DNA of 64,000 nucleotides from a virus (lineage: Duplodnaviria > Heunggongvirae > Uroviricota > Caudoviricetes). Numbering within the stretch: position 1 is the stretch's first letter; every line of letters starts with the position of its first letter. The notes beneath the pieces are model-generated. The model saw only the letters and a list, made by a program, of their open reading frames with translations. It did no database searches and was not told the DNA's origin. Location of the stretch: the IMG/VR virus record IMGVR_UViG_3300024507_000282, positions 40,861 to 104,860 of that record; one strand, 5' to 3'. The translations under genes were made by a program, and so were the position numbers. Shown one piece after another: positions 5,607 through 62,793 of this stretch.

Positions 5607-5936
5607 ATGAACGACTTCAACAACTTCAGAATAAAAACACTTAAACAAATTAAAATATGGGCATGGTTAGCGGCAGTACTACCCTTGGTATCTCTTGCAG
5701 GCATTTTCTTTATATGGGTATTTGGCGACAACACTCTCTTTGCCAGGGCTATGGTATTTGGTGAGACTAGTATGTTTGCCATAGCAGTGATATGGTGGTG
5801 GTGGGCAATATATGTTATCAACAAACTAGTACACCAGTGGGATAAAACTAGAGACAATGTTGGTGAAGTCTTGGTGGAACTTCGAGACATCAAAGACTTT
5901 GTCAAAGGTCGCAAATCGGTCAATACCGATAAATAA
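5607..5936 (+). CDS. membrane protein (2 TM)
   Basis: hydrophobic helices WAWLAAVLPLVSLAGIFFIWVF and FAIAVIWWWWAIYVI. Confidence 0.5.
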   Translation: MNDFNNFRIKTLKQIKIWAWLAAVLPLVSLAGIFFIWVFGDNTLFARAMVFGETSMFAIAVIWWWWAIYVINKLVHQWDKTRDNVGEVLVELRDIKDFVKGRKSVNTDK

Positions 5937-10356: not shown

Positions 10357-11985
10357 ATGGCTGTAGTGCAAATATCAAAAATTCAGCATCGAAGAGGACG
10401 TAAAAATTCAGGTACTAGTTTACCGCAGTTAGCCAGCGGAGAAATTGGTTGGGCAATTGACACGCAAGAATTGTTCATAGGTAATGGTAGTGTTAGTGAA
10501 GGTGCTCCGTATGTGGGCAACACTAAAATTATTACAGAACACGACAACATTCTTGACCTAGCATTACAATATCAGTACAAGAGAAATGATGCCACAATCC
10601 AAACAGGTCCAAGCGCCGCGCAACCGATACAACGTACTGTTCAAGAACGTCTTGATGATGTAGTTTCTGTTAGAGCATTTGGTGCTGTGGGAAATGGTAC
10701 TACAGACGATACATTAGCCATTCAACGTGCTATTGATCAATTATATCTAAACGATGCTACCAAAGGATCTACAGCCAGCAGAATTAAATTAGTGTTTGAA
10801 GCAGGTATCTATAAAATTACTTCTCCACTACGTATTCCTCCTTATGCAAACTTACAAGGTGCTGGCAAAGATAAAACAGTGATTCGCCAGACAGGTGCAT
10901 TTGCAGTAGCATATACAGTTGGTAGCGACAGTACTCCAGGTGTCTATACAGACACATCTACTATGACCAGTTTAAATCAACCACAGTTAATAGGCATGTC
11001 CGACATGACCTTAGAAAATACTGTGGCAAATAAGCCTGGCTTAGAATTAATAGCCGCTAAAAATTCTACATTTAGTAATCTAAAGATTAAAGGTGTATGG
11101 GCATACCCAAGTACAGCCTTAAATGCAGACAGCGTTGGATTAAGATTAGTGGCAAAATCAGCCAGCGTATCTTGTACTGGTAATTTGTTTGACAATGTTG
11201 ACATTACAAACTTTGCTTATGGTATCGACAGTACATACGACATCGAATCTAATCATTTTACCAACAGTACATTCTATGAACTACGTAGAGGAATTAGATT
11301 TGGCCACAACGTAGATTCATTAGCCAGTGGACGTCAGTATGGTCCGCACGAAAACAAAGTTACACATTCACGTTTTTCTAGAATTACAGAAACTGGATAC
11401 GAAATTATTGCAGGTACAGGCAACGTATCTGAAAGCAATACCTATGTACAAGTTGGTAATGACGGCGGTACTGAAGAAACTGCAACCTATGAAGTAGTTA
11501 ATTTTGTTTCAGGCGGTAACGTTTCTACTAACGATTACTTTGAAAGAAGTATCGAATTAACTTCTAATCCAACATACTTGAATTCTATTCCTTATATTCC
11601 AGAAGTAAAAGGCATAGTAAAATCGGAACACAAATACAACAACGAAATTTATATCGACTCGGGTGCAACTGGTAGTCCGTTTATTAAACTGCCTGCTAAT
11701 ACCAGCACTTCTCACATCATTCATTATTTCTATACAAGCCCTGCACAGGCCGTTACAAGACAAGGAACTATTTTTGTTAATGTAGATAGAGAAAATGATC
11801 TAGTACACCTTACAGACGACTGTAGTACCATTGGTAATTCTTCAAACATTGAAGACCTAAGTTTTTCAGCAACTTTAGAAAACGCAGGAACATTTACCAA
11901 TGATCCAACTGTGTTTGTTAGATATACAAATACAGCAGTCTCTGAGGATGGTTATATTAACTATTGGTACGAAACAATTAGTTAA
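10357..11985 (+). CDS. tailspike/fibre protein with pectate-lyase-like beta-helix domain
   Basis: RAFGAVGNGTTDDTLAIQRAID signature of pectate_lyase_3/GH28-type beta-helix; conserved phage fibre N-terminus SGEIGWAIDT..LFIGNG. Confidence 0.6.
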   Translation: MAVVQISKIQHRRGRKNSGTSLPQLASGEIGWAIDTQELFIGNGSVSEGAPYVGNTKIITEHDNILDLALQYQYKRNDATIQTGPSAAQPIQRTVQERLDDVVSVRAFGAVGNGTTDDTLAIQRAIDQLYLNDATKGSTASRIKLVFEAGIYKITSPLRIPPYANLQGAGKDKTVIRQTGAFAVAYTVGSDSTPGVYTDTSTMTSLNQPQLIGMSDMTLENTVANKPGLELIAAKNSTFSNLKIKGVWAYPSTALNADSVGLRLVAKSASVSCTGNLFDNVDITNFAYGIDSTYDIESNHFTNSTFYELRRGIRFGHNVDSLASGRQYGPHENKVTHSRFSRITETGYEIIAGTGNVSESNTYVQVGNDGGTEETATYEVVNFVSGGNVSTNDYFERSIELTSNPTYLNSIPYIPEVKGIVKSEHKYNNEIYIDSGATGSPFIKLPANTSTSHIIHYFYTSPAQAVTRQGTIFVNVDRENDLVHLTDDCSTIGNSSNIEDLSFSATLENAGTFTNDPTVFVRYTNTAVSEDGYINYWYETIS

Positions 11986-23980: not shown

Positions 23981-24373
23981 ATGGCAGAGAATACAAAGAA
24001 GAAAATCAAAATCATAACCGCTCCGGATCGTATATACGATCAAAGTCAAACAATGCTAGTTATTACTCCTAGCGACACACTCAAAGACGCTGTACAGGAA
24101 TATGCTTTAGACTGTAGTGAACACTTAAACATATATCTGTACACAGGCGACGAAGACAACATAGCATGGTTACTCAGCGTAGCCAATTCCGTCGACACTA
24201 TTCTTATAGATATGGATAATAGTCCTGTAAGTATAAGCCAGTTCTTTGCTTACATTTTGAGTATTCCTACTACATACTATAGATGCACGAATATGCAAGC
24301 ACCTTGGGATTTAATAAATAAAAATCGTTTTTACGACTTTCCAAAATTAACAGAGGAAGATAATGAGGGATAA
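23981..24373 (+). CDS. hypothetical protein
   Basis: 130 aa ORF. Confidence 0.5.
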   Translation: MAENTKKKIKIITAPDRIYDQSQTMLVITPSDTLKDAVQEYALDCSEHLNIYLYTGDEDNIAWLLSVANSVDTILIDMDNSPVSISQFFAYILSIPTTYYRCTNMQAPWDLINKNRFYDFPKLTEEDNEG

Positions 24374-24596
24374 ACAACTACGTGGTAGTGGAGTTACTGT
24401 AAAAGACGGTGAACCCGTTGAAAGAGCTCTACGCCGTTTCAAAAAGAAAATACAGGATAGCGGATTATTGCAGGAACTAAGAGATCGCGAGTTCTATGAA
24501 AAGCCAACAACTGCTCGTAAGCGAGCAAAGTCTGCGGCTAAGAATCGTTGGCAAAAAGAACTGCGTAAACAACAACTACCTAAAAAAATGTATTAA
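24363..24596 (+). CDS. rpsU: ribosomal protein bS21 homologue
   Basis: ALRRFKKKIQDSGLLQELRDREFYEKPTTARKRAKSAA closely matches the bacterial S21 core. Confidence 0.8.
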   Translation: MRDKQLRGSGVTVKDGEPVERALRRFKKKIQDSGLLQELRDREFYEKPTTARKRAKSAAKNRWQKELRKQQLPKKMY

Positions 24597-39675: not shown

Positions 39676-41393
39676 GACAAACTCTAAAAGAGTTCCCTGT
39701 AGTACTAGGAAGTGCGCCAGCACAGAAAACAAAGAATACACCACGTGTTCCAGGATCGGCTGTACTAGGTCCAGAACATCTAGATCAAATTATTCAATAC
39801 CCGGGACTAATCGCCAACGTTCCTCAACTAGAACAAAATGCCGCAGGTGTTGGCATTACAGGAACACTTCCAGAAGTAGATGGTGTTAATCGCCGCATGC
39901 CGTTAATTGTTACTGTAGACGGCAAATTATATCCAGCATTGAGTTTAGAGACACTTAGAGTCGCCGCAGGAGACTCTACCTTCCAAGTAAAACTTTTTGA
40001 AGGCGGCGTTGAGAAAATGCGTATTCCAAAGTTTGGTCCTATTGCTACAGATAGTTTAGGAAGAATTTGGATCGATTGGAGCCAAGAAGCTCATAGCGTT
40101 AGTGCTGTTAAACTTCCAAAAGATTTAGGTGGCGCCGTCGTTATTGTAGGTCCTACTGCCGCTGGTATTAGTAATCCGTTACCGACAAGCAAAGGTGCTG
40201 TATTTCCTCACGAAGTGCAGGCCGCAGTAATTGGTACAATGGTTAACGGCATTGTTATTCAACGTCCCGACTATGCCGACGGGGTTGAAATTTTAGCATT
40301 AGTATCACTTGGCATATTATTAATTTTCTTATCGAGGTGGACTTATGTTGGCATTGGTGCTACTGTGGTTATTGTTGGTGCCATCGTTCCTGGTACTATC
40401 TACGCTTTCAATAATTGGCTCGTCTTGGGAGACGCGACTGCGATCGCGTTTGGCCTTATTATCGTTGCTCTTCATTGTTATGGCGTTAAGTTTATAAGCG
40501 AGTTTTTACAGAAACAGGCAATTAAGAAACAGTTCGCTGGATACTGTAGTAAGGAAGTAGTAGAAATGCTACAAAAAGATCCAGACCTAATCAAGCGTGG
40601 TGTGCGTAAAGACGTATCCGTTATGTTCAGTGACTTGCGTGGCTTTACACCCATTGGAGAACACTACGGTGATGATGTTGCTGGATTAGGCAAGTATATG
40701 AACGGTTACATGGATGCTATTAGTCAGCCTATCATGGACAACAAGGGTATGGTCATAAAGTATGTAGGTGACGCAAGTATGCACATACACGGTGCTCCGA
40801 TTGAAGATCCTAATCATGCCCGTACTATTGTTGCTGTTGGTTTACAGATGTTAGATGCTGTTGATGAGTATACTAAACTAATGGAAGCACAAGGCTTACC
40901 ACCAGCCGCAATGGGTTGGGGTTGTAACTCAGGTATTGGCTTTATTGGTGAGATGGGATCAACTGACAGACATAGTTACGACATCTTAGGTGACATGGTT
41001 TCAACCGCCGCTCGTTTAGAAGCACGTTGTAAGGCCTATGGCGTGTTATGTATCATCGGTGCTGAAACTTACAACCGTACTAAAGATGACTTCTTCTATC
41101 TAATGCTAGATAACTTACAACCTAAAGGCAAAACTGTAGCAGACTTAATCTATACAGCATTAAGAACCAAAGGTGAAGATTACAGTAAAGATAAAGTACA
41201 GCACGAGTTGATGCATGCCTTGTATAAACAAAAGAAGTTCGACGAAGCAGCCGCTATGTGTAAAAAACTAAAAGGCAACTTTGGTGGACAAATGGACAAG
41301 TACTACAAAATCTGGATTGAACGTTGCGAGTTTATGAAAGAACAGAACCTTCCAGATAATTGGAATGGTGAATTCATAGCACATGAAAAATAA
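39636..41393 (+). CDS. CHASE2-TM-class III adenylate/guanylate cyclase, C-terminal part (frame 0)
   Basis: CHASE2 continuation, TM helices, cyclase blocks VSVMFSDLRGFT, KYVGDASMH, GDMVSTAARLEA. Confidence 0.65.
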   Translation: MPETDRTGGDGALGQTLKEFPVVLGSAPAQKTKNTPRVPGSAVLGPEHLDQIIQYPGLIANVPQLEQNAAGVGITGTLPEVDGVNRRMPLIVTVDGKLYPALSLETLRVAAGDSTFQVKLFEGGVEKMRIPKFGPIATDSLGRIWIDWSQEAHSVSAVKLPKDLGGAVVIVGPTAAGISNPLPTSKGAVFPHEVQAAVIGTMVNGIVIQRPDYADGVEILALVSLGILLIFLSRWTYVGIGATVVIVGAIVPGTIYAFNNWLVLGDATAIAFGLIIVALHCYGVKFISEFLQKQAIKKQFAGYCSKEVVEMLQKDPDLIKRGVRKDVSVMFSDLRGFTPIGEHYGDDVAGLGKYMNGYMDAISQPIMDNKGMVIKYVGDASMHIHGAPIEDPNHARTIVAVGLQMLDAVDEYTKLMEAQGLPPAAMGWGCNSGIGFIGEMGSTDRHSYDILGDMVSTAARLEARCKAYGVLCIIGAETYNRTKDDFFYLMLDNLQPKGKTVADLIYTALRTKGEDYSKDKVQHELMHALYKQKKFDEAAAMCKKLKGNFGGQMDKYYKIWIERCEFMKEQNLPDNWNGEFIAHEK

Positions 41394-44105: not shown

Positions 44106-44393
44106 ATGTCACAAGCACACGTTCAGAAGTTCGAAGCATCTATGTTTGAGTATTGCTCGGACCATGCCGAAAGGGCATACAAGTTATTTGAAGATGGAGA
44201 AGTAGATGTTGGATTGGAAAGATTAGGCCATTTAGCAGATATACTCCAAATGTTAAAAAGTTCTAAAAGTTCAAACGGAACTATTAACATTAATACATTT
44301 GCACAAGAAGTAAAAGCATTAGATGAAATAGATAAAGATGCCGTATACACACACTTCCAAGAGAACGGCTTTGGACAATATATACCGGAGTGA
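44106..44393 (+). CDS. hypothetical protein
   Basis: 95 aa ORF downstream of promoter. Confidence 0.5.
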   Translation: MSQAHVQKFEASMFEYCSDHAERAYKLFEDGEVDVGLERLGHLADILQMLKSSKSSNGTININTFAQEVKALDEIDKDAVYTHFQENGFGQYIPE

Positions 44394-44395
44394 AA

Positions 44396-44953
44396 ATGAA
44401 AAAAATTGATGAGTTCAATGCGGAAGATAGAATTGATCTTAGATTACTGGAAAATTCTACTTTTTATTTGAATGGAGAGATAGATGAAGATACAGTAGGC
44501 GAAGCCATCAAATGGATTCTCTATGAAAATTTACAAGGCGAAGGTAGAACTTTGACCTTGTATATTAACAGCACGGGCGGAGATTTGTATCAGGCTCTAG
44601 CGTTAATTGATGTAATGCGTAGCAGTCCACATATTGTAAGAACTATTGGAATTGGTGCTGTCATGAGTGCGGCATTTTTAATTTTTGCCTGCGGTGATAA
44701 AAAGCATCGTTATGCGGCTAGTAATACTAGTTTTATGTGTCACCAATTTACATCCGGAATGGATGCTAAGTATCACGACCTAAAAGCAGAAATGAAAGAA
44801 ACCGAATTGTTAAATGAAAAGATGATAACAATTCTAACCGAAACAACAGGCTTGGTTAAAAGTAGAGTTAAAGCAAAACTACTACCAGCCAGCGATGTTT
44901 ACCTAACTGCACAAGAAGTGGTTGACTTTGGGGTAGCGGATCATATAGTATAG
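44396..44953 (+). CDS. clpP: ClpP-family serine peptidase (S14)
   Basis: ClpP-like blocks INSTGGDLYQALALIDVM, GAVMSAAF (Ser), FMCHQ (His); GGAG SD. Confidence 0.65.
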   Translation: MKKIDEFNAEDRIDLRLLENSTFYLNGEIDEDTVGEAIKWILYENLQGEGRTLTLYINSTGGDLYQALALIDVMRSSPHIVRTIGIGAVMSAAFLIFACGDKKHRYAASNTSFMCHQFTSGMDAKYHDLKAEMKETELLNEKMITILTETTGLVKSRVKAKLLPASDVYLTAQEVVDFGVADHIV

Positions 44954-46908: not shown

Positions 46909-47083
46909 AAAAATTCAACACCACATTAAGCATTTACAAAAGAAGCACGACGAATTGGATCGTTTAATTCAAGAAGAGTTTAATAGATACCAAGACGACA
47001 AAGCAGTAAGTAATCTTAAAAAAGAAAAATTACATCTTAAAGATGAAATTGAAAAATTTAAGAAGGACTTAGATTTATTATGA
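46898..47083 (+). CDS. small coiled-coil protein
   Basis: overlapping coupled ORF, Lys/Glu-rich. Confidence 0.45.
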   Translation: MDREKIQHHIKHLQKKHDELDRLIQEEFNRYQDDKAVSNLKKEKLHLKDEIEKFKKDLDLL

Positions 47084-47175
47084 CGTTGCTGTTCTGGTTA
47101 ATTATCGCCGCAGTGGTCGGTTGGGTCATTTGGTGGATCATGGACTGGCACGATAAATTTCCAGATGGCGAATAA
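47080..47175 (+). CDS. tiny membrane peptide (31 aa)
   Basis: ATGA overlap with previous stop; single TM helix. Confidence 0.3.
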   Translation: MTLLFWLIIAAVVGWVIWWIMDWHDKFPDGE

Positions 47176-47177
47176 CA

Positions 47178-47756
47178 ATGCAGTACAATGAATTTTTAGA
47201 TTGGGTAGATATTGACAAGTTTTCAGATGCTTGTAATAACATCTGTCATCAGACAGTATTAAATGAATCCACAAATCGAATGATGAAAGAAAAATTCATT
47301 ATTGCGGCAATGCAATTATCTAATCATAAAAAGAACATCGAGTGGACTGACGTTCGCGATTACGATATAAAATTTACCGATTGGACCAATGGCGACGTAG
47401 AAGTTAAAACTGGCAACGAACCTTTGTTCTACGCAAAGTCAGGAACTCCTAAAAAGACAATCAGTCTTAAATTAAAAAATGTTTACGAAAGTAAGAATCA
47501 AAGAACTACACTAGACAAAGTTTTTAATCATTTAATGATAGTCCAAATTAAAGGAACATTCGCTGTTGCCTTTGTAGATTACGCAACAGTTAAGGCTAAT
47601 CTAAAACAATTAACAGACGGCTTCTTAGTCAAACTAACACACGACCAAATAAATATTGTGTACAAAAAAGATATGAGAAATGAACCGACATCTTGGACAA
47701 TTGACTTAGATCCAAAACCTTGGATATTTGGCACATTAGCAAAGGCAGGCGTTTAA
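47178..47756 (+). CDS. hypothetical protein
   Basis: 192 aa ORF. Confidence 0.5.
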   Translation: MQYNEFLDWVDIDKFSDACNNICHQTVLNESTNRMMKEKFIIAAMQLSNHKKNIEWTDVRDYDIKFTDWTNGDVEVKTGNEPLFYAKSGTPKKTISLKLKNVYESKNQRTTLDKVFNHLMIVQIKGTFAVAFVDYATVKANLKQLTDGFLVKLTHDQINIVYKKDMRNEPTSWTIDLDPKPWIFGTLAKAGV

Positions 47757-47761
47757 AGAAT

Positions 47762-48118
47762 TGTTGTAATCCCTTCAAAGCGAAGGACTTCTGGACGCGG
47801 GTTCGACTCCCGCCAGGTCCACCATAAGGACATAAATTTACTTTGGTATTCATTGTAAATTTACTTTGGTATTGTGTTTTTATGATGGGCCTGCCATGGT
47901 TTCGACAGGGGTAGATAGTAGAGACGGCAACACGGTAGGCGATGACCGTAAATCAAGCAAAACTAGTAAATGCAAACGCATCTACATTTGAGTACTTCAC
48001 TGTTGAAGGCTTCACAGCCGACAATGGTCTAGTAGCAGCCTAAGAAACTGCAACTCCGGGGTAGGACTTACCTTGTAACCCAAACAACCAAAGGGCCTTC
48101 GGGCCCTTTTTTATTTTA
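47762..48118 (+). ncRNA. ssrA: two-piece (circularly permuted) tmRNA gene: acceptor piece first, coding piece second
   Basis: 47791-47824 T-arm GCGGG-TTCGACT-CCCGC + CAGGTCC-A-CCA; 47887 GGGCCTG pairs with it giving G3:U70; UUUCGACAGGGG tmRNA-like 5' element; tag ORF 47972-48043 ANASTFEYFTVEGFTADNGLVAA; terminator at end. Confidence 0.6.
48092..48117 (+). terminator. intrinsic terminator
   Basis: GGGCCttcgGGCCC + T6. Confidence 0.75.
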
Positions 48119-48127
48119 CCAAACACA

Positions 48128-48156
48128 TTGACAGATGCCCTGTCCGAGCCTATAAT
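48128..48156 (+). promoter_or_regulatory. perfect-consensus sigma70 promoter TTGACA-N17-TATAAT
   Basis: exact hexamers 37 nt before ATG 48193. Confidence 0.6.
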
Positions 48157-48192: not shown

Positions 48193-49272
48193 ATGACCTA
48201 TTTCCTAAAGCAAGGTAGCACTTACCGAGTATCCAAAAAAGAAGCACTTGATATTCAAGAGAAGTTGCCGGCTGGTAACTATGTCGTTAAAAAGGACGAG
48301 ATGTCTGGGCAGTTGTTTCTTGAAACAATTGACAAGTTCGAAATCAAAGGCAAGATTTACGGCGATACAAACAAACGTGCCGACCGTATTCTTTATGCGT
48401 TTGAGGATCGTCCCAGTACTACTGGCGTAATGCTTACTGGTGAAAAAGGTTCTGGCAAAACACTATTGGCTAAGATGCTTTCTGTCAAGGGATATGACAA
48501 AGGTATTCCTACTATTGTAATCAATGCTCCTTGGTGTGGAGACCAATTCAATGCGTTCATTCAAAGTATTGAACAACCTGTAATTGTAGTGTTTGATGAA
48601 TTTGAAAAAGTCTATGATGAACACGAGCAAGAACAGATGCTGACTCTGCTGGACGGTGTGTACCCAACCAAAAAGTTGTTTGTGCTTACTTGTAACGACA
48701 AATGGCGTGTTAATAGCCATATGCGTAATCGTCCTGGTCGTGTTTATTACAGCCTTGAGTATAAGGGCTTGGATGCAGACTTCATTCGTGAATACTGCAT
48801 GGACAATCTTCAAAACAAAGAACACATTGAAAAGATTGTAGGTATTGCTGGTACGTTTGACCAATTCAACTTTGACATGCTGAAGGCATTGGTTGAAGAA
48901 ATGAATCGTTTCGACGAAACTCCGCAGGAAGCAATGACTATGCTGAATGCCAAACCAGAATACGGTTCGACTTCTCGTTATGCAATCAAGTTGGTTATCA
49001 ATGGCGAAGAAGTCAAAGAAAACAATTTTGAAGACAAGGAATGGGAAGGCAATCCTCTTAACAAGAATGTCAACATTTCTTACAAGGTTATTGAACGTGA
49101 CGAAGAAACTGGTGACGAAGATTGGGATTGGCAGGGTATCCGATTCACTCCGGACGAGTTGAAGAAGATTGATGACAATGGTACCAAGTACGTGTTCACT
49201 AACAAGGAAGGTGCAAGCCTTATCCTTACCAAAGTTAAAGAGAAGACTTACTCTTACTGGGACGCTTTTTAA
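48193..49272 (+). CDS. AAA+ family ATPase
   Basis: Walker A GEKGSGKT, Walker B VVFDEFEK, sensor-1-like LTCND. Confidence 0.6.
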   Translation: MTYFLKQGSTYRVSKKEALDIQEKLPAGNYVVKKDEMSGQLFLETIDKFEIKGKIYGDTNKRADRILYAFEDRPSTTGVMLTGEKGSGKTLLAKMLSVKGYDKGIPTIVINAPWCGDQFNAFIQSIEQPVIVVFDEFEKVYDEHEQEQMLTLLDGVYPTKKLFVLTCNDKWRVNSHMRNRPGRVYYSLEYKGLDADFIREYCMDNLQNKEHIEKIVGIAGTFDQFNFDMLKALVEEMNRFDETPQEAMTMLNAKPEYGSTSRYAIKLVINGEEVKENNFEDKEWEGNPLNKNVNISYKVIERDEETGDEDWDWQGIRFTPDELKKIDDNGTKYVFTNKEGASLILTKVKEKTYSYWDAF

Positions 49273-49598: not shown

Positions 49599-49627
49599 TT
49601 GACAGACCACAGTTCATTTGCTATAAT
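49599..49627 (+). promoter_or_regulatory. perfect-consensus sigma70 promoter TTGACA-N17-TATAAT
   Basis: exact hexamers; shows that the listed ORF start at 49599 is not the real start. Confidence 0.6.
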
Positions 49628-49667
49628 ATACACATACAGTAAACAACTAGGCGCAGAAAGGCTAAAG

Positions 49668-51830
49668 ATGATTATTAACAATGCTCCGCAAAACGAAGCA
49701 ATTTTGAGTAATGTAAGTGAAGTGGGCGAGTTCCGTATTCGCAACTCTGCTAAGGCATTTAACATTTTGAGTTCAGGCTTGTATGCTAACAAGATCCGTG
49801 CTATCATCCGTGAACTGAGTTGTAACGCAGTAGATAGCCATACTGCCGCAGGCAAACAAGATACTCCTTTTGATGTACACTTGCCCAACCAATTGGAACC
49901 TTGGTTTAGTATTCGTGACTATGGTACTGGTTTGAGCCACGAACAAGTTACAAACATCTATACCACATACTTTGAAAGTACTAAGACCAACAGCAACGAT
50001 TTTATCGGCGCATTAGGTTTGGGTTCTAAGAGTCCTTTTAGTTATACAGATAACTTCACGGTAACCGCAATCAAAGACGGCGTTAAAGGTGTTTACTCTG
50101 CTTTTATTAACGAAGCAGGTGTGCCTAGTATTGCCAAGATGGGTGAAGAACAAACCAGCGAACCCGACGGTGTCGAAGTTAAATTCTCAGTCAGTGACCG
50201 TTGGGACTTTAGTAAGTTCCAAGAAGAAGCACGATATGTCTACACTTATTTTGCTCTGCGCCCAGTTATCAGCGGTGTCAGCGACTTCCGTTTCCGTGAT
50301 GTAGAATATGATGCTAAGGATATCATTCCAGGCGTTCACTCATACACAGACGGACACCGTCGTGCTGTAGCCATCATGGGCAATATTGCCTATCCTATAG
50401 ATGTTCCTAACACAGAACAGGCTATGGGCGAATTGCGCCTGTTGTTGAACTGTGGTTTGGAAATGCACTTTGCTATTGGCGAATTAGACTTCCAAGCAAG
50501 CCGTGAAGGTTTGTCATACATTCCTCAGACTGTAGATGCCATCAAGCGCAAGTTAGAGGCAGTAAATGCTCAGTTGGCTGTTCACGTAGCCAAAGAAGCA
50601 GATGCTATTCCTAACCTGTGGGATCGTGCTATCTTCTTGACTAAGAAGTATCATAATGGTTTGTGGCAAGCGGCGGTTAAGAAGTATGTAGCAGACACTA
50701 ACCTGTCTACATTCGATGACAGCCGTTACGGCGGTACTAAGACTTTCAAAATGGGTGTTGAAGATCTTGCTAAGAAATACAACATCGTTATCAGAGGTTT
50801 TAACTATGCCAAGCACACTAAGGCATATCCTAACCGTAAGGCTGACACACAATACAGTGATAACAAGAACGCTCAAGGGCATTACGATATGTTTGCCTAC
50901 TGGGGCATTACTGTAGAGGACCGTGTACAGTTTATCGTTAATGATACCAATATCGGTGCCCTTGAACGTGCCAAGTTCCACTATCGTGAAACTAAGCCAG
51001 ACAATAGTGCTACAGTCTTTGTCTTAGATAAATTAAACAAAGACAAAGTCATGAACACTAAGGCGTTCTTTAAGGCTATTGCTAATCCTCCAGAGGATCG
51101 TATTGTAAAAGCCAGTTCGTTGTCGAAGAAAGAACGTCAAGTTGGTTTGGCAAAGAACGTTACAATCTTGTGTTTGCAAGAACGTGGCACAGGTGGCTAC
51201 TATCGTGAACGCGAAATGGTTTGGCGTGATGCTGGTAAGGCTGACAGTTTTGATGATGCTACTACTTACTACTACTTGCCTTTGAGCGGTTTTGAAGTTC
51301 AAAGTAAGTATGGTATGAGCAACGTCAAAGAGTTTTACAACGATTTGAAAGACTGTGGTTTAACTGGTTTGAAGACTACAATCTACGGTGTGCGTAAAGG
51401 CGACATTGAGTTTATTAAGACTCAAAAGAATTGGGTCAACATTGAAGAGCACATTGTTAGTGTTTTGAGCAAGCCAATTGATAATAAACTTGTTATGAGT
51501 TTGGTATTGCAGGCTGTTGACAATTTCAACCTGTTGCAGTATAATGAAAGCATCATGTTTAATGTTACTAACAAAAATAGTCCGTATGTTGAATTGGTAA
51601 AACAGTTCAAGGGCTATGAAAAGATTAAGTACAGTGAACAAAGTTTGAAGCGTTTGTGCAATCGTTATGCTCCTGGTGTAACCTTTAGTCCAGAAGCTCA
51701 AGTGCAGAAGTTTACTGATGAATGTGCAACCATTAGTAAGCGTTATCCGTTGTTGGCATACTTGCGTAGTGCGCCAAATCATGAAGTTGCTGAGTACGTT
51801 AATTTGATTGACACACAGAAAGGTGTTTAA
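49668..51830 (+). CDS. rIIA: rIIA-like membrane-integrity protector (GHKL ATPase fold)
   Basis: Bergerat N box IRELSCNAVD, G1 IRDYGTGLS, G2 GALGLGSKS; about 720 aa; N-terminus recalled as similar to T4 rIIA. Confidence 0.6.
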   Translation: MIINNAPQNEAILSNVSEVGEFRIRNSAKAFNILSSGLYANKIRAIIRELSCNAVDSHTAAGKQDTPFDVHLPNQLEPWFSIRDYGTGLSHEQVTNIYTTYFESTKTNSNDFIGALGLGSKSPFSYTDNFTVTAIKDGVKGVYSAFINEAGVPSIAKMGEEQTSEPDGVEVKFSVSDRWDFSKFQEEARYVYTYFALRPVISGVSDFRFRDVEYDAKDIIPGVHSYTDGHRRAVAIMGNIAYPIDVPNTEQAMGELRLLLNCGLEMHFAIGELDFQASREGLSYIPQTVDAIKRKLEAVNAQLAVHVAKEADAIPNLWDRAIFLTKKYHNGLWQAAVKKYVADTNLSTFDDSRYGGTKTFKMGVEDLAKKYNIVIRGFNYAKHTKAYPNRKADTQYSDNKNAQGHYDMFAYWGITVEDRVQFIVNDTNIGALERAKFHYRETKPDNSATVFVLDKLNKDKVMNTKAFFKAIANPPEDRIVKASSLSKKERQVGLAKNVTILCLQERGTGGYYREREMVWRDAGKADSFDDATTYYYLPLSGFEVQSKYGMSNVKEFYNDLKDCGLTGLKTTIYGVRKGDIEFIKTQKNWVNIEEHIVSVLSKPIDNKLVMSLVLQAVDNFNLLQYNESIMFNVTNKNSPYVELVKQFKGYEKIKYSEQSLKRLCNRYAPGVTFSPEAQVQKFTDECATISKRYPLLAYLRSAPNHEVAEYVNLIDTQKGV

Positions 51831-51831
51831 A

Positions 51832-52629
51832 ATGTTTCCATATTTGATTCAAGGCAAAAATATTGTTGTTGTAATTAACAACAATCCACATACAATTACT
51901 TCTACTCATATTGCCTATGAGAAAGTCAAAGAAGCAATTAAGACAGGTGACTGGGACACAGTACAGGAAGTAATTGAGCCAAAGAAAATTGTGCTCGAAT
52001 ATGGTGCTGGTAACATCGCTATCCAAGGAGACAAGTTCTACTGGAAGGGACAAGAGTTCCACAACACATTGGCAGATAGAATTATTTCTATGTACCAAGA
52101 TGGTTTCCCAATTGAGCCTATGGTTCAGTTTATGGAGAACTTGATGAGCAACCCAAGTCATCGTGCTGTTACAGAACTGTACAAGTTTTTGGAAAAGGGT
52201 AATTTGCCAATTACCAATGACGGTCACTTCTTGGCATACAAGAAAGTTCGTAAGGACTATAAGGATTGCCACAGTGGTACAATGGATAACTCTGTTGGAC
52301 AGATTGTTGAAATGGAGCGCAACCAAGTTGACGACAAGGCCGAAAACACTTGTAGTTCTGGTCTGCACTTCTGCTCACGTGAGTACTTGGACCACTTTGG
52401 TGGTGAACGTACAGTGATCCTTAAGATCAATCCACGTGATGTTGTAAGCATTCCTACTGACTACAATGCGTCTAAGGGTCGTGCTTGCCGCTACGAAGTT
52501 ATTGGTGAATTGGGCGTACATCCAGACGATGCTTTCAAAGCACCTGTCCAGGATGAAGCCTACACACAAGAGCAGTTGGATGCCGCTGTTAAGGCCGCAG
52601 TCGATGCCGCTCTTAAGGTAACACAATGA
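51832..52629 (+). CDS. rIIB: rIIB-like protein
   Basis: follows rIIA; NPSHRAVTELYKFL and CHSG..NSVGQIVEM..CSSGLHFCS blocks recalled as rIIB-conserved. Confidence 0.55.
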   Translation: MFPYLIQGKNIVVVINNNPHTITSTHIAYEKVKEAIKTGDWDTVQEVIEPKKIVLEYGAGNIAIQGDKFYWKGQEFHNTLADRIISMYQDGFPIEPMVQFMENLMSNPSHRAVTELYKFLEKGNLPITNDGHFLAYKKVRKDYKDCHSGTMDNSVGQIVEMERNQVDDKAENTCSSGLHFCSREYLDHFGGERTVILKINPRDVVSIPTDYNASKGRACRYEVIGELGVHPDDAFKAPVQDEAYTQEQLDAAVKAAVDAALKVTQ

Positions 52630-53824: not shown

Positions 53825-53898
53825 GCGCTTGAAGCTCAATGGATAGGCAGGGACTTCTAAACTCCCGATAGCAGGTTCGATTCCTGTCTAGCGCACCA
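53825..53898 (+). tRNA. isolated tRNA whose anticodon loop TTCTAAA gives anticodon CUA (amber-suppressor-like); identity uncertain
   Basis: acceptor GCGCTTG/CTAGCGC (one U.U), 3-bp D stem, AC stem GGGAC/CTCCC with C.C closing pair, T-arm GCAGG-TTCGATT-CCTGT, CCA encoded. Confidence 0.5.
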
Positions 53899-59187: not shown

Positions 59188-59277
59188 CCCCCGTTAGCTC
59201 ATGGAGAGCAGGTCGGCTTATAACCGATTAATCTAGATAAGGTCCAGGATGAGGTTCGATTCCTCAACGGGGGACCA
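59188..59277 (+). tRNA. 90-nt tRNA with long variable region; anticodon loop CTTATAA (UAU, Ile2-like?)
   Basis: acceptor CCCCCGT/ACGGGGG, AC stem GTCGG/CCGAT, T-arm TGAGG-TTCGATT-CCTCA; D and variable arms atypical. Confidence 0.45.
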
Positions 59278-61653: not shown

Positions 61654-62793
61654 TTAAGAAATAGCATTGACGGGTATCGTCTATGGACGCATAGACTTAT
61701 GAAGGATAAGGCCATCTTACCCTTCTGAGAAAACCGTGAACAATGGCTTATGAGGAGAATCGAACTCCACTCAGAAATACGTTTCATCCCATAGGGTGTA
61801 ATGTTATTTTTTAATGGTAAAAATTTAAGGGTAGTTTATTATCCTGTTGGCGGTTCGCCGTTGACGAAGAATAAGTTGAGTGATCAACCCAAAGGAGGTA
61901 AGCCTACGCAACTCCGCCAGTAATGGTTCATGTAAACAAGCCTGCTCACTACCGCGAGGTAGCGTTCACTGAGAAGACCGGTGGATGTAACAATGAAGCA
62001 AGTGTTAGGGAAAGAATGTGTATCGACTGGCCCGCAAGGGAACCAGGGTGCATGAAAAGTAACGGGTGGTGCTGACTTCCTAACAAAACCAACTTGCGAA
62101 TTGGTATGAGAAAGGGTAGTGTATTTGTCCAAGGGGTCGCTCCTAAGGGCTTGTATGCAATATTAATGGTTAGTGGACTGTTTTGATGCAGGACATTGAT
62201 CGTGAAATATCACTGAGTAGTCCGCGAGACAAAAGGTATGTGGTGAGTTGTATTCAGTAATCCAAAAGGTTATTGAGCAACAGAGGCAGCTCATCGCGGT
62301 AGGTTTGATATAGCGTAATGGTAACGCAATTGCCTCTTAAGCAATGGACTGTTGGTTCGATCCCAACTATCGATTATAAAATGCAAAGACTGCCTCGGTC
62401 ATATGTGAAAAGCATCTAATACTCGAGCCGCAAGGTAATCGAGTCAGACGTAGCTCGCAAGGTGAAATCTGTTTATGCTGGAAGTTTCGTAAGTGGTTAG
62501 CGCCGCTGAATGGCTCGCAAGGTCAACGGAGTAGATAGCGTAGAATAGCATATGGCGACAAGACTACTGCCTGTCTTTAAAAACGGCGATGCTGATAGTG
62601 GACATAGGTACAGTAATGGCTTATGTGGATGTCTAGAGAAGGTTGGCTCGCAAGGCTGACTATAATGCTAGAGGCACTATTGGCTAACGTATAATCTCAG
62701 CGTTAGCACTATTCTAAAACACATTAGCTCGAACCGAATAACGGCATTATAAATGCTTCTGGTAGTTGGTTAGTGTGTTTCAGAATAGAATTT
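61654..62793 (+). ncRNA. 1.1-kb ORF-poor spacer in the tRNA array carrying a repeated GCYCGCAAGG motif (5 copies) and many hairpins; candidate structured RNA(s)
   Basis: no + strand ORF over 60 aa; motif at 62029, 62425, 62451, 62511, 62643; one pseudo-tRNA inside. Confidence 0.35.
62297..62366 (+). pseudogene. tRNA-like pseudogene (D-arm, CTT anticodon arm, T-arm present; acceptor stem unpaired)
   Basis: D GCG/CGC, AC ATTGC/GCAAT loop CTCTTAA, T-arm GTTGG-TTCGATC-CCAAC; no 7-bp acceptor helix, no CCA. Confidence 0.35.

Follow-up and report, generated by a model that had tools for sequence, protein, structure and literature searches.

The window analysed here is the whole stretch of 64,000 nucleotides (nt) taken from the tailed-virus record IMGVR_UViG_3300024507_000282 (Caudoviricetes; positions 40,861 to 104,860 of that record). 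A segment free of open reading frames (ORFs), bounded by the stop codon of the ORF 47178–47756 and by the gene at 48193, raises the question of whether it encodes a transfer-messenger RNA (tmRNA) and, if so, of which structural type. A first-pass annotation, made without database searches, had read this segment as a phage-borne, two-piece, circularly permuted tmRNA of the alphaproteobacterial type. We retain the permuted tmRNA but not its type: with a probability of roughly 0.88, the segment is a complete ssrA gene for a beta-type two-piece tmRNA in an uncultivated jumbo phage related to Xanthomonas phage XacN1.

Identification of a permuted tmRNA gene

When the whole window was searched with ARAGORN, a permuted tmRNA was called at 47732–48134 with the tag ANASTFEYFTVEGFTADNGLVAA. 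The detailed output placed the 3′ tRNA domain at 47786–47824, the 5′ tRNA domain at 47887–47913, and the tag frame at 47972–48043. Rfam reported the family tmRNA_permuted (RF04321) at 47762–48043 with 138.4 bits (gathering score 47, E 4.4e-27) and the family beta_tmRNA (RF01850) at 47671–48113 with 129.4 bits (gathering score 84, E 4e-39, model positions 1–331 of 331). Both programs thus agree with the first-pass annotation on a permuted tmRNA, and ARAGORN on its tag, but the best family was beta_tmRNA and not alpha_tmRNA (RF01849). With scores far beyond chance, the two-piece tmRNA gene is real, complete and circularly permuted. Its parts, all on the + strand, are as follows.

47762–47824, +: acceptor piece, the 3′ part of the tRNA-like domain (RF04321 and RF01850 alignments, ARAGORN)
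47762–47766, 47772–47773, 47775–47776 and 47787–47793, +: 5′ strands of helix 2 (P2), within the acceptor piece
47797–47813, +: T-arm (GCGGG 47797–47801, loop TTCGACT 47802–47808, CCCGC 47809–47813)
47814–47824, +: acceptor 3′ strand CAGGTCC (47814–47820), discriminator A (47821) and CCA (47822–47824)
47825–47886, +: intervening segment (IVS) of 62 nt, between CCA and G1
47887–48115, +: coding piece (full-length beta_tmRNA match, ARAGORN 5′ domain)
47887–47893, +: acceptor 5′ strand GGGCCUG, with G3 at 47889
47906–47912 and 47923–47932, +: 3′ strands of P2, within the coding piece
47933–47936/47945–47948, +: stem A of pseudoknot 1 (PK1)
47972–47974, +: resume codon GCA, with UAGUAAAU directly before it
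47972–48043, +: tag frame of 23 codons, ANASTFEYFTVEGFTADNGLVAA, with the stop codon TAA at 48041–48043 (ARAGORN)
48035–48074, +: region of the post-tag hairpins
48035–48038/48048–48051, +: post-tag hairpin 1 (GCAG/CUGC), with the stop codon inside its loop
48058–48063/48069–48074, +: post-tag hairpin 2 (GGGGUA/UACCUU)
48090–48115, +: intrinsic terminator at the 3′ end of the coding piece (hairpin AAAGGGCC-TTCG-GGCCCTTT at 48090–48109, then a T run)

The order of the parts is the permuted one: the acceptor piece with its CCA, then the IVS, then the coding piece, which starts with the acceptor 5′ strand. In the tRNA-like domain, GGGCCUG pairs with CAGGUCC over 7 positions, and the resulting 7-bp acceptor stem carries G3 (47889) opposite U70 (47818). 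A73, a fully encoded CCA, a 5-bp T-arm and a TTCGAnT loop complete the domain. The terminator (8-bp stem with 5 G-C pairs, loop TTCG) is the terminal hairpin modelled in RF01850. The anatomy listed in the first-pass annotation (T-arm, acceptor strands, discriminator, CCA, G3:U70, tag frame and terminator) was read back from the sequence, except that the gap between CCA and G1, given there as 60 nt, measured 62 nt.

Assignment to the beta structural type

The developers of RF04321 advise the use of the three older models for subtyping (PMC11915505). Because the Rfam output gives only the best match of the clan for each locus, the alpha and cyanobacterial scores for the window are hidden behind that of beta_tmRNA, which matched over its full length including the terminal hairpin. 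In one run of 17 loci, all 15 tested relatives of the window gene were likewise assigned to beta_tmRNA, with 86–167 bits. The same tool called alpha_tmRNA at 59 bits for the phage loci L060 (tag ADAELVAA) and L087 (tag ...ADQELVAA), so Rfam subtyping does discriminate between the types. Bacterial genomes were also scanned for the P2/PK1 core pattern. The scan yielded at least 120 loci, nearly all from Rhodocyclales; among the matches listed were Azonexus/Dechloromonas, Thauera, Azoarcus, Propionivibrio, Accumulibacter and Rhodocyclus. ARAGORN called 114 of the listed loci permuted, and their conserved cores were 72–83% identical to those of the window.

Judged by these matches, the RNA scaffold is beta-type, not alpha-type. 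The beta lineage was reportedly first described by Sharkady and Williams in 2004. Because the window gene is phage-borne, with a 62-nt IVS and a 23-codon tag, its sequence places it in a phage branch of the beta structural type rather than among the typical bacterial members.

Genes of the beta type also occur outside Rhodocyclales, namely at L180, L231 and L234 (Cupriavidus), L235 (Pseudomonas indica), L219 (a Bacteroidota metagenome-assembled genome, MAG), L265 (an Alteromonadales MAG) and L224 (a Bifidobacterium MAG). The cores of L265 are 96% and 94% identical to those of the window, and both L265 and L224 have the appearance of phage contigs that were binned into MAGs. In Cupriavidus and P. 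indica, the tags are of the bacterial style (ANDERFA[LV]AA), and these genes may have arrived by horizontal transfer or be second copies.

Covariation of the helices

Using ARAGORN, we collected at least 88 phage and at least 114 bacterial permuted tmRNA genes. The acceptor piece and the coding piece up to the resume codon were joined, reduced to 68 non-redundant sequences and aligned with MAFFT. The structural pairs were taken from the Rfam alignments, and the 3′ partner of each helix was slid by 1–2 columns as a control.

The acceptor stem linking the two pieces (P1) was 100% paired, with GC, CG, AT and TA swaps at pairs 4 and 5, and G3:U70 was present in 68 of 68 sequences. The T-arm was also 100% paired, with four pair types at pair 2. 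For P2a and P2d, 93% and 92% of the cells were paired, with many compensatory changes. In the control, 22–79% were paired over the helices, and 22–51% for P2a and P2d. Weaker pairing was observed for P2b and P2c (68% of cells) and for PK1 stem A (73%). This covariation supports the pairing predicted to join the acceptor and coding pieces through P1 and P2; for PK1 the support is partial.

Compensatory changes were also observed downstream of the tag frame. Among close relatives, hairpin 1 occurs as GCAG/CUGC, GCUG/CAGC or GCGG/CCGC, and hairpin 2 as GGGGUA/UACCUU or GAGGCA/UGCCUU. The terminator stem covaries among relatives as well (GGGCC/GGCCC, GCACC/GGUGC, GGACC/GGUCC and GGCGCC/GGCGCC). 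In several relatives, the loop of hairpin 2 pairs downstream to give a pseudoknot (UAGUUA/UAACUA in L057, UGGU/ACCA in L088).

The tag peptide

The resume codon GCA at 47972 follows UAGUAAAU and opens 23 codons that end in LVAA before UAA. Rfam aligned UAAAUGCAAACG to the consensus resume region, and U and A stand at positions −5 and −4 before the resume codon, which we take to be the equivalent of the U85-A86 context of Escherichia coli. The tag ends in VAA, like known degrons. Together with the alanine borne by the RNA, 24 residues would be added to the product.

Tags of 21–31 residues were encoded by ~24 of the 88 phage genes listed, whereas nearly all of the 114 bacterial tags listed had 10 residues (ANDERFALAA in 47, ANDEQFAIAA in 24, ANDERFAVAA in 19 and ANDERFAIAA in 13). 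The N-terminal motif A-[NTK]-A-[DNS]-T-F-[DEK]-[FY] is common to 16 distinct phage tags. Because synonymous codons vary at Thr5 and Phe6 of this motif, the pattern suggests selection at the peptide level, in a small sample of related sequences. Many of the long tags end in what appears to be a complete ordinary tag, such as ...RG-AANESRFALAA (L092) and ...AM-NDEQFAIAA (L102), and the C-terminal ADNGLVAA of the window resembles the 8-residue tag ADAELVAA of L060, L118 and L131. The window tag can therefore be read as a putative two-part peptide, ANASTFEY and ADNGLVAA joined by a linker. In the tmRNA-phage literature searched, no paper describing extended phage tags turned up, which is weak negative evidence.

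The intervening segment

The IVS starts with the Shine-Dalgarno-like TAAGGA and ends with a conserved TGAT directly before G1. An exact 18-nt direct repeat, TAAATTTACTTTGGTATT, occupies 47833–47850 and 47856–47873, and the nearest relative, L067, retains the two copies. Among the genes listed, the IVS measured 24–45 nt in bacterial beta-type genes and mostly 53–223 nt in phage genes, compared to 62 nt in the window.

Several roles for this segment were considered and rejected. The repeat is not a general phage promoter or regulatory motif, as it occurs nowhere else in the window even when 3 mismatches are allowed. A 7-nt pairing between the repeat (CUUUGGU) and the coding piece (ACCAAAG, 48088–48094) was dropped, because by our own estimate ~0.7 such matches are expected by chance. 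A promoter for the coding piece inside the IVS would have poor hexamers, and its start site would truncate the acceptor stem. The sole candidate for a small ORF in the window IVS was a TTG-start frame running into the coding piece, and in L067 this frame has an Ile-to-Arg change in its hydrophobic core.

In relatives of the window gene, the IVS holds a mini-ORF starting with ATG (L128, within 11414–11859, and L146, L085, L152, L082, L151, L157, L159 and L110). It has a strong Shine-Dalgarno sequence (CCAUAAGGAG) right past the CCA, and its usual stop codon is the conserved TGA before G1. The product is hydrophobic, with 23–41 residues (e.g., MNDNLGDLAIGVIVVLVIFALVLL), and is homologous in L128, L146 and L085. 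The window IVS keeps the TAAGGA, but an ATG mini-ORF of this kind is absent.

Proposed mechanism

In the proposed pathway, a single precursor would be transcribed, probably together with the upstream ORF. Host RNase P would cut 5′ of G1 at 47887 and host 3′ processing would expose the encoded CCA at 47824, so that the 62-nt IVS would be discarded. The resulting ~63-nt acceptor piece and ~225-nt coding piece would stay paired through the long P2 helix and the 7 bp of the acceptor stem. Host alanyl-tRNA synthetase would charge this RNA via G3:U70 and A73, and host SmpB and EF-Tu would bring it to ribosomes stalled at the 3′ ends of mRNAs. Translation would resume at GCA 47972, add alanine plus ANASTFEYFTVEGFTADNGLVAA and stop at UAA. 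The ribosome would be freed, and the product would carry the C-terminal ...LVAA degron for Clp-type proteases. The predicted tag peptide on non-stop products is AANASTFEYFTVEGFTADNGLVAA, ending in ...TADNGLVAA. The phage would probably gain extra ribosome-rescue capacity and control over the fate of tagged proteins, in an infection to which it brings its own tRNAs and ribosomal protein bS21.

Some observations weigh against a two-piece tmRNA that works in this way. The tag of 23 codons is more than twice the usual length of 10, and its recognition by host proteases or adaptors is assumed. The promoter scan found no convincing promoter directly upstream of the gene. No match to SmpB was found in the 64-kb window with an approximate E. 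coli SmpB query (a weak negative), so host factors would be needed; an SmpB gene could lie outside the window. PK1 stem B, proposed in this analysis, was paired in 64% of the sequence-by-pair cells, and the second stem of the post-tag pseudoknot has only 2–3 pairs in the window. Thermodynamic co-folding of the two pieces was uninformative, as P1 and P2 were not recovered and the gain in binding equalled that of shuffled controls.

ClpP-like protease, suppressor tRNA and the possible fate of tagged proteins

The window carries further genes related to translation and proteolysis.

44390–44953, +: stand-alone ClpP-like protease of 187 amino acids (PF00574, 115 bits, nearly the whole profile)
24351–24593, +: ribosomal protein bS21 (PF01165, 74 bits)

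The bS21 gene and ~27 tRNA genes had been noted in the first-pass annotation; ARAGORN and Rfam located 26 complete tRNA genes and one cut by the end of the window. The Ser-His-Asp triad of the ClpP-like protein is invariant in 12 phage ClpP homologues. The protein scored 100 bits with cellular ClpP models, E 3e-21 with solved ClpP structures and 62 bits with a head-maturation protease model, all below the curated cut-offs of these comparison models. A role as prohead protease was considered and disfavoured, though not settled: no recognisable capsid or portal gene lies next to the ClpP-like gene, and the cellular ClpP models score higher.

Among the fetched phage loci, all 14 tblastn matches to ClpP lay 1–6 kb from a permuted tmRNA gene. 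When loci were seeded with the closest IMG/VR relatives of the ClpP-like protein, 20 of 79 had a permuted tmRNA gene within 10 kb, always on the same strand (18 of 50 among the ClpP-seeded loci whose downstream sequence extends 8.5 kb or more). The closest homologues (62–72% identity) have no tmRNA gene nearby and adjoin arrays of 27–32 tRNA genes. The arrangement appears to be a loose synteny within related large phages; a functional module is not demonstrated by it.

An amber-suppressor tRNA gene with a CUA anticodon (53825–53898, +; ARAGORN label 'Pyl') is conserved throughout the phage clade. CUA-anticodon tRNAs also occur at L001 322–480, L129 672–1059 and in many of L004–L037, and in XacN1 and L129 two copies lie within ~1 kb of the tmRNA gene. 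TAG is the stop codon in 1 of the 44 long + strand ORFs of the window.

These neighbours bear on a different reading, in which the two-piece tmRNA is real but serves mainly for something other than general rescue and host proteolysis: the extended tag would send proteins down a route chosen by the phage, perhaps through its own ClpP-like protease or an adaptor. Read-through on host mRNAs by the suppressor tRNA could raise the demand for tmRNA and thus for tagging. We consider this reading rather unlikely. It draws on the recurrence of long composite tags with a common N-terminal motif only in phage genes, on a ClpP-like gene with an intact triad 2.8 kb upstream of the tmRNA gene, whose product is nearer to cellular ClpP than to prohead proteases, on the same-strand synteny described above, and on the suppressor tRNA in a window where TAG stops are rare. 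Phage G likewise joins tmRNA, suppressor tRNA, ClpP and ClpX (PMC12484599). However, the linkage is loose, as the closest ClpP relatives lack a tmRNA gene within 10 kb and five tmRNA-bearing relatives lack ClpP nearby, and both shared ancestry and the clustering of translation genes confound the association. Neither ClpX nor an adaptor gene turned up beside the phage ClpP gene, most phage tags of the same family are ordinary 10-residue ANDxxFALAA peptides, and rare TAG stops are expected anyway at 41–44% G+C. In a broader and speculative proposal, which we hold to be unlikely, phages maintain a diverse beta-type branch with features lacking in the bacterial one, namely double-degron tags, long IVS that code for small membrane peptides in some phages, and a loose association with suppressor tRNAs and cellular-type ClpP; these features would jointly make up a phage-run system provoking, tagging and disposing of aberrant translation products.

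Host and phage relatives

The acceptor piece of the window gene matched Xanthomonas phages XacN1 and JGB6 and Pseudomonas phages PaMx31, SM1 and their relatives in nucleotide searches; PaMx31 and SM1 are isolated phages of Pseudomonas aeruginosa. ARAGORN gave the permuted tags ANANTFDYALAA for XacN1, (VT)ANDSYFEVALAA for JGB6 and ANDTSFDVRLAA for PaMx31, and all three loci, when tested with Rfam, were beta_tmRNA above the gathering score. These genes (L001 1476–1896 in XacN1, L002 1491–1911 in PaMx31 and L003 1455–1863 in JGB6) are absent from the GenBank annotation. A 'hypothetical protein' coding sequence is annotated over the matching stretch in JGB6, PA_L9, UF_RH6 and Bacillus phage G.

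Pseudomonas and Xanthomonas themselves have an ordinary one-piece tmRNA. Since their phages carry beta-type permuted genes, the permuted form does not predict the class of the host and is unusable for host prediction. The first-pass annotation had taken the gene order as a sign of an alphaproteobacterial or cyanobacterial host, and this part of it is not supported either. An alpha-type tmRNA indicating such a host would account for the permuted order and for the ...LVAA ending, which recurs in the two alpha-assigned phage tmRNAs (ADAELVAA and ...ADQELVAA). It is nevertheless very improbable in view of the full-length beta_tmRNA match at 129 bits, the uniform beta assignment of the tested relatives, the Rhodocyclales affiliation of the bacteria sharing the P2/PK1 pattern, and the same type in isolated Pseudomonas and Xanthomonas phages. 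The best protein relative, which is a Xanthomonas phage, and a perfect sigma-70 promoter at the neighbouring gene also speak against it. A proteobacterial host is plausible, given this consensus promoter and the relationship to XacN1.

No close phage relative of the window was found among 50,697 phage records by megablast and blastn, which matched only the tRNA genes and the acceptor piece. The rIIA protein of the window was most similar to that of XacN1 (29.5% identity), and 46 IMG/VR contigs, the largest of 372 kb, carry homologues of the ATPase encoded at 48193. Related phages retain the tmRNA gene, with 73–85% identity along most of it, in a changing gene neighbourhood. The gene of the nearest relative, L067, which comes from a contig of 383 kb, shares 85% identity over 334 nt. 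In the window and in L021, the tmRNA gene immediately precedes the ATPase gene; in L005 and L012–L014 it follows that gene at 0.6–1.5 kb. In L067, L057 and L102 its neighbours differ, though other genes are common with the window at 65–85% nucleotide identity. The position of the tmRNA gene thus changes within the jumbo-phage clade.

Integrity of the gene and flanking signals

Phages integrate into ssrA and can carry its fragments (PMC9004378, PMC4131195), and the tmRNA gene of the window has no evident promoter. It could accordingly be a non-functional relic, such as a copy of a host ssrA or an attachment-site fragment, or a decoy consisting solely of the tRNA-like domain and directed against host trans-translation, as proposed for mycobacteriophage DS6A. 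We regard either possibility as highly unlikely: every tmRNA element is intact, the helices are preserved by compensatory changes across a diverse phage family, and the tag frame is open, with an N-terminal motif conserved through synonymous changes. Furthermore, no bacterial sequence exceeding 83% identity in the cores was found, and no integrase was seen nearby.

Two promoter-like elements flank the gene.

47701–47728, +: weak promoter candidate TTGACT-16-GATATT, within the 3′-terminal part of the upstream ORF
48128–48156, +: perfect sigma-70 promoter TTGACA-17-TATAAT (12 of 12 matches), serving the ATPase gene at 48193 and lying outside the tmRNA gene

The upstream candidate has 9 of 12 consensus matches, a score that shuffled sequence also reaches. 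A TATAAT 7–9 nt before the gene is present in the relatives L067, L102 and L149 but not in the window. The upstream ORF 47178–47756 (192 amino acids, no assigned function) ends 5 nt before the acceptor piece, and co-transcription of the tmRNA gene with this ORF is therefore likely. Downstream, the tmRNA gene is a separate unit, closed by its terminator and followed by the next gene's own promoter. Since the region lies directly before the ATPase gene on the same strand, it could be read as a structured 5′ leader or as a riboregulator of that gene. This reading is negligibly probable, because the strong terminator (48090–48115) and the separate perfect promoter intervene and because relatives have the tmRNA gene behind the ATPase gene or at other genomic sites.

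Comparison with known systems

The beta-type two-piece tmRNAs of Rhodocyclales (Dechloromonas/Azonexus, Thauera, Azoarcus) share with the window gene the permuted order, the tRNA-like domain, P2, the resume region, the terminal hairpin and, with partial support, PK1. In contrast to these, the window gene is phage-borne, its IVS is 62 nt long with a repeat instead of 24–45 nt, its tag has 23 codons instead of a uniform 10 (ANDERFALAA and similar), and it lacks a TATAAT promoter of its own directly upstream. It also encodes the full CCA, whereas the bacterial beta consensus lacks the final A. The tmRNAs of XacN1, JGB6 and PaMx31/SM1 are permuted and beta-type like that of the window. The XacN1 tag, ANANTFDYALAA, has the N-terminal motif of the window tag, and amber-suppressor tRNAs adjoin the XacN1 gene. 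The tags of XacN1, JGB6 and PaMx31 are shorter (12–14 residues) and their IVS longer (86–114 nt) than those of the window, and nucleotide identity with the window is confined to the acceptor piece.

The marine Methylophilales phage Melnitz and pelagimyophages also encode permuted tmRNAs, as predicted by ARAGORN (PMC9004378). These belong to the alpha lineage, unlike the beta-type gene of the window, and the Melnitz gene carries a glutamine riboswitch, whereas no riboswitch was reported by Rfam in the window. Huge phages and megaphages, including phage G, resemble the window phage in being very large and in combining a tmRNA with many tRNAs and translation genes (PMC7162821, PMC12484599). Bacillus phage G encodes ClpX, which was not found in the 64-kb window. 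The tmRNA of phage G is a one-piece form.

A phage-encoded two-piece tmRNA is not new in kind, because two-piece tmRNAs of phages (PMC9004378) and tmRNAs of huge phages (PMC7162821) have already been published. In the survey by Buchholz et al., 402 of 18,146 phage genomes had a tmRNA gene, and 53 of 133 unique forms were two-piece by ARAGORN, mostly in aquatic phages (PMC9004378). Both tmRNA and SmpB occur in huge phages (PMC7162821), tmRNA is also present in mycobacteriophages and phage G (PMC4131195), and the current tmRNA database holds 79 phage sequences (PMC11915505). What the window adds is an uncultivated jumbo phage with a full ribosome-rescue RNA beside its own tRNAs and bS21, a further element in the takeover of host translation by large phages. 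Beta-type two-piece tmRNAs are widespread in phage contigs (at least 88 permuted genes), and in several isolated phages they had gone unannotated, with hypothetical protein genes called over some of them. How phages may redirect tagged proteins can be approached experimentally through the extended conserved tag motif.

In a core alignment of 95 sequences, 30 Rhodocyclales sequences formed one tight cluster with a mean identity of 0.92, compared to 0.69 for the phage sequences, a comparison biased by the different sampling patterns used for phages and bacteria. The Rfam authors filtered beta sequences at 88% identity to obtain ~100, and alpha sequences at 57.5% (PMC11915505). Given the greater diversity of the phage sequences, it is possible that phages are a reservoir of the beta two-piece form and that the Rhodocyclales lineage was derived from phages rather than the reverse.

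Other features of the window

Directly downstream of the tmRNA–ATPase pair, the window encodes homologues of rIIA (743 amino acids) and rIIB (273 amino acids) at 49599–52629 (+). A conserved ORF of 31 codons for a small membrane protein, MTLLFWLIIAAVVGWVIWWIMDWHDKFPDGE, lies at 47081–47176 (+) and also in L057 at ~5716–5811 (−); it falls below the 40-residue limit of the ORF listing. The place held in the window by the 192-residue ORF is taken in L057, and apparently also in L128 and L151, by a cold-shock-protein gene that stops 8 nt short of the tmRNA gene. At the edge of the large tRNA array, a full-length GOLLD RNA was detected at 62240–62703 (+; RF02032, 207 bits, E 4e-57); it encloses a tRNA-Lys(CUU) gene (62303–62376). 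A tRNA-Ile gene with a UAU anticodon (59188–59277, +) is unusually long at 90 nt (Rfam tRNA, 45.9 bits), and a similar call of 95 nt was made in L023.

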